Part shown: piece after piece, positions 42,301-45,658 of the stretch
How positions within the stretch are numbered: position 1 is the stretch's first letter
Layout: every line of letters begins with the position of its first letter
Assembly (NCBI GenBank): GCA_963775425.1
Contig: CAVZJB010000017.1
Coordinates: 416,001-480,000, forward strand
Source of the DNA: an uncultured delta proteobacterium
GTDB taxonomy: Bacteria > Myxococcota > UBA727 > VGSZ01
Length of the DNA stretch: 64,000 nucleotides
Direction: 5' to 3'
Translations under genes and position numbers: made by a program
The notes under the pieces: model-generated
What the model was told of the DNA's origin: nothing
The model's database searches: none
The model's input: the letters and a program-made list of their open reading frames with translations, nothing else

Positions 42301-43373
42301 AGCGCGCGCTCACCGACGCGCACGCGGCGTACCTCCAGACGTTCGAGAGCACCCAGAACGCGCTCGTCGCCGCGCTCTCGGGGAACGCCCCCGTCGTCGC
42401 CGAGCGCGCTCCGCGCATGCTCGAGGCGCCCTCCCGCGCCGATCGCCACGCGCGCGTCGACGGTGCCCGCAACGGACACGCGGACGTCGACGGTGCCAAC
42501 GGGCACGCACGCCTCGAGGGCGCCAACGGGCACGCGCGCTTCGAGCGGTCCAACGGGCACGCGCAGGTCGACGGTGCCAACGGCTTCGGCGGCGCCAACG
42601 GCTTCGGCGGCGCCAACGGCCACAACGGCCACAATGGCAACGGCCTCGATGGCCACAACGGCCACAACAACGGCAACAGGCACAACGGCAACGGCAACGG
42701 CAACGGCAACGGCAACGACGGCCACGGCTACAGCCACAACGGCAACGGCAACGGCAACGGCAACGGCCACAACGGCAACGGCAACGGCGACGGCAACGGC
42801 CGGGCCGTGGTGCTGGCTGCGCCGGCCGTGCAGGCGGCGGCGACGCCCGCGCCCGTCGTCGTCGACGGCGGGCCGGTCGACGCCCGGGCCCTGCTCATCG
42901 CGGTGGTCGCGGACAAGACCGGCTACCCCGCGGACAGCCTCGACGACGGGATGAACCTCGAGGCCGACCTCGGCATCGACTCCATCAAGCGCGTCGAGAT
43001 CCTCGGGGCGCTCAAAGAGAAGCTGCCCGCGGCGGGCGCGCTCGACGCCCTTCAGCTCGCGCAGCTCAAGACGCTCGGCGAGATCGCCGGCGCGCTCGGA
43101 GGCGCCCCCACCGCCGCCGCGCCCGCGCCCGGCGGGCTCCTCGAGCTGCTCCTCGACGTCGTCGCCGACAAGACCGGCTACCCCAAGGACGCGCTGTCGC
43201 CGTCGATGGCGCTCGAGAGCGATCTCGGCGTCGACAGCATCAAGCGCGTCGAGATCCTGAGCGCCCTCAAGGACAAGGTCCCCACGCTGCCGCCCGTCGA
43301 CGCCGTGAAGCTCGCGCAGCTCCAGACCATCGGCGAGATCGCCGGGGCCCTCGGGGGCACCGGCCCTTTCTGA
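39306..43373 (+). CDS. pfaA: PfaA/Pfa2-like iterative PKS, N-terminal part: KS-MAT-ACP-ACP (about 1355 aa)
   Basis: DAACASS, EAHGTGT, GHTKSAAG (KS); FPGQGSQ, GHSFG, AFHS (MAT); LGIDSIKRVE and LGVDSIKRVE (ACPs). Confidence 0.9.
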   Translation: MSQRRQPPIAIVGIGGLFPGSLDAARFWNHILRGTNLVTDVPDTHWRAADYLDRDPKAPDKTYCARGAFLPPVPFDPMREGIPPSLLPSTDTSQLLALLVARMALEDALGPLPQADRSRVSCILGVTSGQELFGQMASRLRHPEWRAGMRAAGIAEDAVERAVQKIGEAMVPWTEATFPGLLGNVVAGRIANRLDLGGTNAVTDAACASSFAALSMAVDELVLGRADVVLTGGVDTLNDIFMYMCFSKTPALSASGDCRPFDASADGTLLGEGLGMLALKRLEDAERDGNHVYAVIRGVGTSSDGRSKSVYAPVPEGQARALRRAYDVAGYAPSTVELVEAHGTGTRAGDAAELQGLRLAFSEAGDERRQACAVGSVKSQIGHTKSAAGAAGLLKAALALHEKVIPPTIKVTAPNPAGNLEDSPFYLPTRARPWVRPSTHPRRAGVSSFGFGGANFHVTLEEYTGPAPRPPRFSRRDVEVFALSAPSAEALRGRAAALLADDDEDAAPGALAARARDVNAAFDPAQAFRACFVASSIAEASKHLEALAQGKRPPGLFTGEGAPGKVAFLFPGQGSQSLGMAGAVALEIDAARAVLDRSADVDPGVCAAVFPPTSFSAGGVEAQRAHLTRTENAQPALGVASLAFLRALEHLEVRFDMAGGHSFGELTALCAAGAFDERALVLLAKKRGALMASASSQSGAMAAVLGDPATVREALAGRSDVVVANENAPDQTVISGDAAALDAVAQQLAAAGLTVKKLAVSTAFHSPLVEAACAPLGEFLDSMNVEATRTPVYSNVSARPHGDAGSIRAALARQVRERVRFVDEVRAMHDDGARVFVEVGPGQVLTGLARRIVPGAVCVATDGKDGLRAFFSALASLCAAGVPVALDKLPATVPSRAPVAGKTSVMITGSNLGKPALPSARVAAPSPAPSPVGRPLEPSAARAPGPAAAARAAPPSPVSLSTRKVSMTTKNAPAPLSSSWLDVLREGQRQTADAHIAFQRALTDAHAAYLQTFESTQNALVAALSGNAPVVAERAPRMLEAPSRADRHARVDGARNGHADVDGANGHARLEGANGHARFERSNGHAQVDGANGFGGANGFGGANGHNGHNGNGLDGHNGHNNGNRHNGNGNGNGNGNDGHGYSHNGNGNGNGNGHNGNGNGDGNGRAVVLAAPAVQAAATPAPVVVDGGPVDARALLIAVVADKTGYPADSLDDGMNLEADLGIDSIKRVEILGALKEKLPAAGALDALQLAQLKTLGEIAGALGGAPTAAAPAPGGLLELLLDVVADKTGYPKDALSPSMALESDLGVDSIKRVEILSALKDKVPTLPPVDAVKLAQLQTIGEIAGALGGTGPF
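42447..42800 (+). repeat. In-frame Asn-Gly-His-rich repeats (27-bp, 18-bp, 9-bp and AACGGC units) in the MAT-ACP linker
   Basis: About five HA.(V/L/F)(D/E)GANG-like units, FGGANG x2, NGH and (NG)n runs. Confidence 0.85.
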
Positions 43374-43402
43374 GCGGCTCTCCTGCGCCGACGCGGGAGA
43401 GC
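43364..43402 (+). promoter_or_regulatory. Candidate programmed -1 ribosomal frameshift signal (C_CCT_TTC + TGA + hairpin)
   Basis: X_XXY_YYZ heptamer at 43364-43370 in the correct phase; 6-nt spacer; stem GCTCTCCTGCG / loop CCGA / CGCGGGAGAGC at 43377-43402. Confidence 0.75.
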
Positions 43403-45658
43403 GAGCCCTCCGACGGCGGGCCCTCGGCCCGCGCCGTGCTCGGCCGCGAGCCGCGCCCGCGCGCGTTCGACAAGCGCGTGCCGCTCGCGCCCGGCCGCGC
43501 CCTCGCCGTCGCCGTCGCCGGCGCCCGCGGCCGCGCCCTCGCCCGCGCCCTCGAAGGCGTCGGGGACGTCATCGTCGTCGAGTCCGACGAACCGCTCGCG
43601 AACGCCGGCGGCCTCGTCGACGCCCGCGCCCTCGACGCCCCGCTCGACGCCGCCGGCGCCCTCGAGGCCGCCAAGGGCTCGCTCTTCCTCGCGCAGCGCG
43701 CCCGCCCGCACCTCCTCGAGGCTGCGCGCGCGGGCGGCGCGTTCTACGTCGTCGTCACCGCGCTCGCCGATGCGCACCCCGTGACGGGAGCCGTGCACGG
43801 CCTCTTGAAGACGGCCGCCCTCGAGTGGCCCGAGGTCGCCTGCGCCACCGTCGACGTCGGACACGGCCTCGACGCCGGCCTCGTCGTCGCCGACGAGCTG
43901 CGCAGCGGCTTCCTGGACCTCGAGGTCGAGCGCACCGATGCCGGCCGCTTCGTGCCCGCGCTCGTCGAGCGCCCCCTCGCCCACGCGCAGCGAGCGGCGC
44001 CTCCTTCGTCGCCCCTCCCCGGCGCCCACGGGGAGGTCATCGTCGCCAGCGGCGGCGCCCGCGGCGTCACCGCCACGGCGCTGCTCGCGCTCGCCCGGGC
44101 GTCTCGGCCCGCGCTCCTCCTGCTCGGCCGCACCGCGCTCGTCGACGAGCCCGCCTGCTGCGCCGGCGCCGGCGACGAAGCGTCGCTGAAGCGCGCGCTG
44201 GTCGCGGACAAGAAGCGCGCGGGCCTGGCGCTGTCGCTCGCCGCCGTCGGCGAAGAGGCGCGCGCCGTCGTGGCCGTGCGCGAGATCCGCGCGTTCCTCG
44301 CTTCCCTCGAGAGCGCCGGCGCCCGCGTCCTCTACCGCGCCGTCGACGTGCGCGACGCCGTCGCCGTCGCCGCCGCCTGCGCCGACGCGCGCGCCGCGTT
44401 CGGCCCCATCACCGGCCTCGTGCACGGCGCGGGCGTCCTCGCCGACAGGCGCATCGAGGACAAGACCGCCGAGCAGGTCGCGCGCGTCATGGACACCAAG
44501 GTCCTCGGGCTCGAGGCGCTCCTCGCCGCCACGCGCGACGACCCGCTCCGTGTCGTCGCGCTGTTTTCGTCGGTGGCCGGGCGCTTCGGCAACGTCGGCC
44601 AGGTCGACTACGCCATGGCCAACGAGGCGCTCAACGAGACCGCCGTGGCGCTCGCGCGAACGCGCCCCGGGCTCGTCGTCAAGTCGCTCAATTGGGGTCC
44701 TTGGGAGGGCGGCATGGTCACGCCCGCCCTCAAGAAGATCTTCCTCGAGCGCGGCGTCCACGTGCTCAGCCGCGCAGCGGGCGCGCGCCACTTCGTCGAC
44801 GAGCTCTCCGCGCGCGACGGCGCCGTCGAGGTGGTGTTCGGCGGCGCGCTCTCCGGGCAAACGGCCGCCGGCGCCCCCGCCGTCAGCCGCGCCGTCAACC
44901 GCGTCCGCGTCGACGCCCGCGCGTTCCCCTTCCTCGCCGACCACGCCATCCAGGGCACCGTGGTGCTCCCCGTCGCCGGCGCGCTCGCCCTCGCCGCCGA
45001 TGCCGCGGGCGCCACGTCGTTCACCGACGTGCGCGTGTTGCGCGGCCTGCGCCTGCCGCGCTTCTTCGACGAGGGCCACGACGTCGACGTCGTCGTCGAC
45101 GGTGAGCGCTTCTCGCTCTCCGTCCCGGGCGAGCGCGGCCCTCGCTACACCGCGCGCGTCGTGCGCTCCCATGGAGCGCCCCCCGCAGCGCCGAGCGCGC
45201 TCACCGCAGCAACCGGCGCGAGGCCGGCAGGCGGCGAGCCGGTCTACGCGCGCCTCTTTCACGGGCCGCGCTTCCACCTGCTCCAAAGCGTCGACCGCAT
45301 CGACGACGACGTCCTCGTCGCGCGCGCCCGCGGCTGCGTCGACGCCGGCTGGGGAGAGGCGCTCGCCCTCGACGCGGGCGCCCTCGACGCCGCCCTCCAG
45401 GCGGCGCTCCTGTGGGCGCGGCACCGCTCCGGCGGCGCCTTCCTGCCCACGGCCATCGCCGCCGTGACCGCGTCGACGCCCGCCGCCGGCCGCGGCCCGC
45501 TCGCGTGCGTGGTGCGCGGTGCGCGGTGCGACGGCGTCAAGGCCGTCGCCGACGTCACCCTCACGCGCGCAGACGGCACCGTCGCCGCCGCCCTCACCGG
45601 CGTCGAGCTGCACCGCCTGCCGCGCGACGACGCGTTCGCGAGCGGGGCGCGCCCGTGA
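43370..45658 (+). CDS. pfaA: PfaA/Pfa2-like C-terminal part: KR + PKS-type DH, in the -1 frame
   Basis: SGGARGVT, HGAGVLAD, GQVDYAMANE (KR); FLADHAIQGTVVLP, LFHGPRF, DAALQ (DH); no convincing start codon with SD. Confidence 0.85.
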   Translation: MSGSPAPTRESEPSDGGPSARAVLGREPRPRAFDKRVPLAPGRALAVAVAGARGRALARALEGVGDVIVVESDEPLANAGGLVDARALDAPLDAAGALEAAKGSLFLAQRARPHLLEAARAGGAFYVVVTALADAHPVTGAVHGLLKTAALEWPEVACATVDVGHGLDAGLVVADELRSGFLDLEVERTDAGRFVPALVERPLAHAQRAAPPSSPLPGAHGEVIVASGGARGVTATALLALARASRPALLLLGRTALVDEPACCAGAGDEASLKRALVADKKRAGLALSLAAVGEEARAVVAVREIRAFLASLESAGARVLYRAVDVRDAVAVAAACADARAAFGPITGLVHGAGVLADRRIEDKTAEQVARVMDTKVLGLEALLAATRDDPLRVVALFSSVAGRFGNVGQVDYAMANEALNETAVALARTRPGLVVKSLNWGPWEGGMVTPALKKIFLERGVHVLSRAAGARHFVDELSARDGAVEVVFGGALSGQTAAGAPAVSRAVNRVRVDARAFPFLADHAIQGTVVLPVAGALALAADAAGATSFTDVRVLRGLRLPRFFDEGHDVDVVVDGERFSLSVPGERGPRYTARVVRSHGAPPAAPSALTAATGARPAGGEPVYARLFHGPRFHLLQSVDRIDDDVLVARARGCVDAGWGEALALDAGALDAALQAALLWARHRSGGAFLPTAIAAVTASTPAAGRGPLACVVRGARCDGVKAVADVTLTRADGTVAAALTGVELHRLPRDDAFASGARP

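Follow-up and report, generated by a model that had tools for sequence, protein, structure and literature searches.

The pfa operon and its ACP-KR junction

We analyzed a window of 64,000 nucleotides (nt), the whole stretch of DNA under study, from the genome of an uncultured delta proteobacterium (G000; 8.26 Mb in 18 contigs). The window holds an operon, in the order pfa1-pfa2-pfa3, in DNA of 72.9% GC (Table 1; all coordinates are window positions). By its sequence, the middle gene is a PfaA/Pfa2-type subunit of a polyunsaturated fatty acid (PUFA; secondary-lipid) synthase, with a putative PUFA product. Operon partners of such a synthase are found on both sides of it: a PfaD-type enoyl reductase (pfa1) and a PfaC-type KS-CLF-DH2 protein (pfa3). 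The stop codon of pfa1 overlaps the ATG of pfa2 (39306) as ATGA. The true gene borders within the operon are ATGA and GTGA overlaps, unlike the junction between ACP and KR described here.

The zero frame of pfa2 carries the Pfam domains KS, KS_C and Acyl_transf_1 and two PP-binding stretches. Both this open reading frame (ORF) and the KR-DH part match TIGR02813, the NCBIfam model of PfaA. The zero-frame ORF matches positions 5-880 of 2582 (1000.3 bits) and the KR-DH part positions 1873-2342 of 2582 (300.4 bits), the cut-off for the whole protein being 1010.1 bits. Together, the two ORFs give the PfaA domain order KS-MAT-ACPn-KR-DH on this single model, and the upstream part joined to the -1 continuation makes a full-length PfaA of ~2117 aa. 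There is no second strong KR-DH copy in the 18 contigs (8.26 Mb) of the genome.

Table 1. Features of the pfa operon and of the ACP-KR junction in pfa2
Feature	Positions	Strand	Evidence or remark
pfa1, PfaD-family enoyl reductase	37614..39309	+	TIGR02814, 545.7 bits (cut-off 449.25); frameshifted in the assembly
pfa2 zero frame, KS-MAT-ACP-ACP, 1355 aa, Gly-Pro-Phe-stop end	39306..43373	+	Pfam; TIGR02813
Shine-Dalgarno (SD)-like G-run, GGGGG	43353..43357	+	6 nt 5' of the heptamer; possible upstream stimulator
Candidate slippery heptamer, C_CCT_TTC	43364..43370	+	In frame; P-site CCU to CCC and A-site UUC to UUU re-pairing
Zero-frame stop, TGA	43371..43373	+	Abuts the heptamer; would terminate the short isoform
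-1 frame continuation (Pro-Phe-Leu-Ser-Gly...), KR and PS-DH	43364..45658	+	Pfam KR, PS-DH; TGA at 45656-45658
GC-rich hairpin, 11 bp	43377..43402	+	6 nt 3' of the heptamer; presumed stimulator; folded
GTG, first possible own start of KR-DH (rival reading)	43436..43438	+	No SD-like motif 5'
pfa3, KS-CLF...FabA-like DH x2	45655..52152	+	Two KS stretches, two FabA-like domains; GTG overlaps the KR-DH stop as GTGA

Across the junction, the zero frame reads ...GGC ACC GGC CCT TTC TGA. A first reading of this DNA, made from its letters alone (the original prediction), had claimed that the zero frame ends GGC CCT TTC TGA after the second ACP, that KR-DH follows in the -1 frame, and that products of 1355 and ~2117 aa result. 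Pfam domains and reading frames agree with the first two claims and the ATG at 39306 with the third, and the heptamer, the G-run, the 11-bp stem, its CCGA loop and the GTG at 43436 had all been placed exactly. The hairpin stem, GCTCTCCTGCG / CGCGGGAGAGC, includes one U-G pair. A pseudoknot, in which the loop of this hairpin would pair with TCGGC at 43424-43428, had also been suggested: those letters are present, but no conserved counterpart was seen in the related genera g3 or g2. Searched against Rfam at E<=10, the region 43000-43800 gave chance-level matches only, far below the gathering scores.

The codons of the heptamer are suited to a -1 slip. CCT is rare, at 9 of the 277 Pro codons in pfa2 and pfa3, in line with the earlier remark that it is atypical here. 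The genome encodes tRNA-Pro(GGG), in two copies, and tRNA-Phe(GAA), each cognate to the zero-frame and the -1-frame codon alike, so both tRNAs can re-pair as had been proposed. C_CCU_UUC is a member of the motif class H_HH.U_UU.Y, which passages of Sharma et al. (2014, PMC4066793) rank with those of highest efficiency in E. coli. In-frame X_XXY_YYZ heptamers are found at only 3 of the 1355 codon positions of the upstream ORF.

We consider it likely that a programmed -1 ribosomal frameshift takes place at 43364-43370 within a single PfaA/Pfa2-type gene, making isoforms of 1355 aa and ~2117 aa. The sequences show how the signal is built, that it is conserved and that no start codon is; the slip itself, its efficiency and the purpose of the isoform ratio we infer. 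In the proposed mechanism, tRNA-Pro(GGG) would read CCU in the P site and tRNA-Phe(GAA) would read UUC in the A site as the GC-rich hairpin, 6 nt downstream, meets the mRNA entrance of the ribosome. Some ribosomes would slip one base back, to CCC-UUU, read on through CUG AGC GGC... and pass KR and DH, yielding the ~2117-aa full-length synthase. The remaining ribosomes would stop at the adjacent UGA and release the 1355-aa KS-MAT-ACP-ACP protein. The presumed purpose would be to fix the amount of the condensing/carrier module relative to the reductive/dehydrating module or the full-length enzyme; the original prediction had likewise suggested that the site might set the ACP:KR/DH stoichiometry.

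Conservation of the junction in family f1

Family f1 comprises 11 genomes in our collection. Five of them, from three genera (G000; G001 from genus g2; G002, G004 and G006 from genus g3), have a stop codon right after ACP2 and KR in the -1 frame; in G004, this frame is seen over 77 residues only, before the contig ends. The same five genomes have a heptamer, an abutting stop and a nearby hairpin, and in 5/5 the -1 frame runs through the heptamer without a stop. The combination of heptamer, stop, hairpin and -1 KR frame that the original prediction had proposed to look for in homologs is thus found in 5/11 f1 genomes and 3 genera. Each of the five upstream ORFs has one in-frame heptamer abutting the stop, among few in all (1/1076 codon positions in G006, 2/1088 in G002, 1/818 in G004 and 5/1071 in G001). 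The upstream ORFs of G006 and G004 have no in-frame heptamer other than the one at the junction.

The sequence around this layout varies. Within a linker that is poorly alignable and differs in length and sequence, G000 and the three g3 genomes have exactly the same 15-nt block, GCCCTTTCTGAGCGG, and with it retain the rare codon CCT. The g3 genomes all have C_CCT_TTC followed by TGA, together with a hairpin unlike that of G000. G001 has T_TTT_TTG followed by TAG, and an unrelated 9-bp stem after a spacer of 3 nt. The GC-rich stem differs in each of the three genera, always starting 3-6 nt 3' of the heptamer, and the outer stems of G006 and G002 are related by one compensatory change from C-G to U-A. 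Genus g3 also has GGAG or GGGG 7 nt 5' of the heptamer, and a role for GGGGG at 43353-43357 as an upstream stimulator is only suggestive. These comparisons support the view that a signal is conserved among relatives at the nucleotide level beyond what the protein would need, with heptamer, stop and stem changing and the layout being kept.

Alternatively, the offset at the ACP-KR linker could stem from an indel introduced in sequencing or assembly, or from a mutation that has inactivated the gene and left a pseudogene. Short homopolymers favor indels, and a deletion gives a -1 offset. In addition, pfa1, 4.3 kb upstream, has a private 1-nt insertion. A search for sequencing runs gave two DNA runs, with 0.04-0.05 of the words, and no RNA run; no contig from the DNA runs bridges 43364-43373. 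The junction is, however, common to five separately assembled genomes of three genera, and this sharing of the layout by independent f1 assemblies contradicts an assembly error. KR-DH is intact and conserved in the relatives, at 54-55% identity over the ACP2-to-KR query and 55% over KR-DH, with no stops 3' of the junction, and it is the only copy in the genome. A six-frame comparison of the whole cluster between G000 and G006 shows that both shift to the -1 frame at the junction and nowhere else in pfa2 or pfa3. We thus regard an indel or an inactivating mutation as a very improbable cause of the split.

The frame change in pfa1 is of a different kind. It lies at 39030-39050 (...GAC TTC CAG ATT C TGG...), where there is one extra T at ~39040-39041: G000 reads ATTCTGG, vs ATCTGG or ATTTGG in 5/5 relatives, all of which are continuous there. 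We considered this change as a second programmed site and rejected it, as it is unconserved. The insertion might reflect either indel errors in the assembly or decay of the cluster through an inactivating mutation.

In 4/6 genomes of the sister genus g4, a single open frame spans the ACPs and KR; the other two loci begin inside the KR-side ORF.

The same junction in other clades

We scanned metagenome contigs (the best 80 of 451 candidates) and species-representative genomes (the best 80 of 82), using the alignment of the ACP2 region as the query. Seeded with one ACP type, this sample is biased toward ACPs like those of G000. Among the metagenome loci, an ACP motif and a KR match were found together in 68/79, in one frame in 60 and otherwise in 8. 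In five of these 8 loci (L075, L081, L083, L089 and L097), KR is in the -1 frame, and an A9-A10 run provides, 3-21 nt 5' of the stop, A_AAA_AAN heptamers that are in frame. Three other loci were rejected as cases of this fusion layout. L037 is a different phenomenon, with a +1 offset and no heptamer, and in L082 and L094 the break falls ~330 codons past the last ACP (near 4453 and 1103, respectively), after which repeat-like non-coding DNA follows.

Among the genome loci, both features were again found in 68/79, and six loci have KR in the -1 frame: three f1 genomes together with L127, L130 and L128. In L127 and L130, both Myxococcales metagenome-assembled genomes (MAGs), G_GGA_AAG is directly followed by TGA and TAA, respectively. 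The two have a common 10-bp stem 7 nt 3' of the heptamer, which differs between them by a change from U-A to C-G. L128 (Mycolicibacter nonchromogenicus DSM 44164, 483-567) has a zero frame that stops and KR-DH in the -1 frame. It was rejected as an independent fusion case, as it has a 2-nt insertion just after the ancestral C_CCT_TTT relative to its continuous relatives; it may represent a layout flipped only recently, or a mere indel or error of assembly, and not a flip under selection.

A search of a plasmid collection returned mostly unrelated matches to short-chain dehydrogenase/reductase (SDR) proteins, and two matches were examined further. Plasmid pPP1 of the Bacteroidota isolate Persicobacter psychrovividus NBRC 101262 encodes six ACPs and has G_GGA_AAG 9 nt before a TGA, with KR-DH in the -1 frame. 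Plasmid pNFSY07 of Nostoc flagelliforme (L193, near locus positions 3670-3760) has an A9 run, and its gene is annotated in three pieces. Loci of this cyanobacterial type show additional splitting on the KR side: the Nostoc gene is annotated there as a "hypothetical protein" and an "SDR oxidoreductase", and L082 and L094 have the break described above.

These A-run loci bear on a further explanation, in which transcriptional slippage or RNA editing restores the frame, or in which the UGA is read through, for example by hairpin-directed selenocysteine insertion. The A9-A10 runs of the five metagenome loci and of Nostoc suffice for polymerase slippage, and the Nostoc junction needs a +1 change, which is beyond the reach of a ribosomal -1 slip. 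Because of this A9 junction, the A-run sites may rely on slippage during transcription or may be undergoing decay. In G000, however, the runs are merely C3 and T3. A UGA followed by a hairpin is superficially like a bacterial selenocysteine insertion sequence (SECIS), but KR lies in the -1 frame, where readthrough from the zero frame could not reach it, and relatives have TAG and TAA at the same position. Selenocysteine insertion and readthrough were rejected on these grounds, and the chance that the frame of pfa2 is restored at the RNA level or by readthrough is minute.

Candidate slip signals also lie in this linker in continuous homologs. The linker window of 131 continuous loci contains 75 in-frame heptamers, a rate of 0.0076 vs 0.0023 elsewhere. 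A -1 stop lies within one codon of 45 of these 75 heptamers (45 of the 131 loci), against a background of 43/463. In 36 Actinomycetota loci (Mycobacterium, Mycolicibacter and MAGs), C_CCT_TTT is directly followed by a -1-frame TGA. Seven Bradymonadales/Myxococcales loci, including Lujinxingia vulgaris, have G_GGA_AAG/A, one codon and then TGA or TAA, and L082 and L094 have C_CCT_TTC, one codon and TGA. L119 has Arg-Lys in place of Pro-Glu past the heptamer, and the -1 stop is still kept, as TAA. This dnaX-like layout would yield a short product after a slip, and in Actinomycetota the C_CCT_TTT cassette would release a KS-AT-ACPn isoform.

The elements flanking these heptamers are also conserved. 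The 36 Actinomycetota sequences have a 19-pair hairpin 6 nt 3' of the heptamer that is 96% paired, compared with 31-46% in slid controls. We count 44 double-change cells in it, vs 14.8 +/- 4.2 in shuffled sequences, and 0/500 shuffles reach 44; strong covariation is shown only for this Actinomycetota version of the hairpin. In the G_GGA_AAG clade, GGAGG lies 6-10 nt 5' of the heptamer in 9/9 loci (L112, L113, L115, L118, L119, L120, L125, L127 and L130). The codons for a Gly-Gly dipeptide are always chosen in this clade such that GGAGG results, which resembles the SD-like stimulator of dnaX. The Actinomycetota loci (L131-L183, e.g., L148:3273-3357) have GGTGATC a few nt 5' of the heptamer.

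In the KR tree, L127 and L130, of the fusion type, fall within a group of dnaX-type relatives, and L128 lies among Mycolicibacter. From either layout, fusion or dnaX-like, the predicted products are identical: KS-AT-ACPn by itself and the full synthase. The candidate cassette heptamers across clades are C_CCU_UUC/U, U_UUU_UUG and G_GGA_AAG/A, each with a hairpin and often with an SD-like GGAGG 5'. The clades that bear them are Myxococcota-type MAGs, Bradymonadales, Actinomycetota (including cultured Mycobacterium and Mycolicibacter) and Bacteroidota. On balance, and with some reserve, we favor the view that recoding recurs at the linker between ACP and KR in PfaA-type synthases, with conserved -1 cassettes in at least four clades and two interconvertible layouts; selection would then be for co-producing KS-AT-ACPn and the full synthase.

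The split could also mark two genes, a pfaA1-like KS-MAT-ACP2 gene and a pfaA2-like KR-DH gene. The latter would be translated from its own start (the GTG at 43436) or by termination-reinitiation after the UGA, leaving the heptamer and hairpin incidental or involved in mRNA stability or coupling. A split into pfaA1 [KS-AT-ACP5] and pfaA2 [KR] is an accepted annotation in Bacteroidetes and other clusters, according to two published descriptions (PMC3098273; PMC3914696). Overlaps of 4 nt also yield a -1 offset, and L127 has a GTGA overlap with GGAGG 5' of it. L130, however, shares this junction and is without a GTG. The original prediction had held that KR-DH is without a good start of its own, and we find no SD-like motif 5' of the G000 GTG. 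Aligned with continuous homologs, this codon falls two codons past a conserved Arg that opens the KR-side domain, so a protein begun there would lose this Arg.

Other loci likewise argue against a separate start. No start codon is positionally conserved across G000, g3 and g2, the candidates in G001 being different again. The -1 frame of G006 opens just 45 nt 5' of the stop and has no ATG, GTG or TTG until +56. Past the stop, L075, L081 and L083 are free of start codons over 104-179 nt, and the first to appear in L081 and L083 comes only after residues that are conserved in continuous homologs too. Furthermore, independent genes would not retain a stop-abutting, in-frame X_XXY_YYZ heptamer while its sequence changes, and in continuous relatives this heptamer is retained and a -1 stop follows it at once. 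We therefore consider two separately started genes unlikely, and a programmed slip within one gene remains our preferred reading.

Several observations nevertheless weigh against such a slip. The pfa1 insertion, whether an assembly error or a sign of decay, is one. GTG or TTG codons lie 32-71 nt past the stop in f1 genomes, and in g3 a GTG stands three codons before the conserved Arg, so a separate start is possible there. The energy of the hairpin is ordinary for its GC content, at percentiles of 6.9% in G000, 2.6% in G001 and 22-34% in g3 (45-nt windows), and the z-scores for folding of the whole region, from -2.1 to +1.1, are not significant. As z-scores of this kind are not significant in such GC-rich sequence, we rely on position and covariation. 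The G001 hairpin has a spacer of only 3 nt, and the G001 heptamer, U_UUU_UUG, is given as efficient for the eukaryotic system only in passages of PMC4066793. Among five continuous g4 loci, three have no in-frame heptamer in the linker and two have only a G/C-type heptamer far from a -1 stop. The next ORF after the Nostoc A9 run is in the +1 frame. Our counts cover mutually related sequences and overstate their independence. Finally, most clades in the KR tree are without a cassette, and two isoforms are therefore not a general need of these synthases.

Relation to known frameshift systems

To our knowledge, few bacterial chromosomal genes outside mobile elements use -1 frameshifting. In E. coli dnaX (tau/gamma), a -1 frameshift makes a long and a short isoform from one chromosomal gene. 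The pfa2 junction resembles dnaX in its in-frame X_XXY_YYZ heptamer, its hairpin ~6 nt 3' and possibly its SD-like element 5', and 45 of the 131 continuous PfaA homologs have the dnaX layout itself, in which a slip leads to an immediate -1 stop. In G000, by contrast, the arrangement is reversed, as the zero frame ends in a stop and it is the long product that requires a slip. The G000 heptamer is C_CCU_UUC, and the gene is a multidomain synthase cut at a domain linker.

In the orfA-orfB pair of IS911 and other IS3-family elements, a -1 slip near the stop of the upstream frame makes a trans-frame fusion protein. This fusion layout is like that of pfa2, as is the use of a hairpin or pseudoknot as a stimulator; stimulators of IS911 and the IS3 family are mentioned in passages of PMC4066793. 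The G000 gene differs in that it is not mobile and belongs to a conserved biosynthetic operon, with orthologs in several phyla. A non-mobile setting is also found in E. coli copA and the carboxysomal csoS2, chromosomal genes in which a -1 frameshift releases a domain-level short isoform. These genes likewise make a truncated and a full-length protein from a -1 slip, although they belong to other protein families, unrelated to carrier-protein megasynthases.

The closest likeness within the gene family itself is in the Type D and Type H secondary-lipid clusters, where pfaA1 and pfaA2 are annotated as two genes in passages of Shulse & Allen (2011, PMC3098273). They have the same break point, [KS-AT-ACPn] / [KR...], and differ from pfa2 in being described as two genes; the comparison is with their published description. 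The word "frameshift" is absent from that text.

The original prediction knew of no frameshift described for pfa synthases, and our literature searches of open-access text, supplements excluded, likewise found no report of one for pfa or polyketide synthase (PKS) genes. The accessible portion of a 2016 recoding review has no mention of polyketide, fatty acid synth, acyl carrier or PUFA, and none of these terms occurs in a 2025 frameshifting preprint. There is also no PKS frameshift cluster in the main text of Antonov 2013.

If our reading is correct, pfa2 would be the first described case of an isoform ratio set by frameshifting in a carrier-protein megasynthase. It would also be a new and widespread chromosomal case, in which the stoichiometry of synthase subunits or domains could be set during translation. 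Annotation now splits such genes into a "type I PKS" and an "SDR oxidoreductase" or "hypothetical" protein, or overlooks the short isoform. Heterologous expression of pfa clusters for omega-3 production may hinge on whether the slip site is retained or tuned. Carriers available in culture, among them Persicobacter psychrovividus, Lujinxingia vulgaris and non-tuberculous mycobacteria, allow direct testing.

Two further features of the window lie outside the junction. Within pfa2, between MAT and ACP1, a linker of 122 residues (42435-42800) is of low complexity, rich in Asn, Gly and His, with NGH and NGNG repeats. Beyond pfa3, a gene on the - strand (52838-55180) encodes a Ser/Thr protein kinase with a GYF_2 domain, with pfa3 on one side and a 4HBT thioesterase on the other. 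In G006, the thioesterase gene lies directly 3' of pfa3, and G000 thus has ~3.2 kb of extra DNA at this position.

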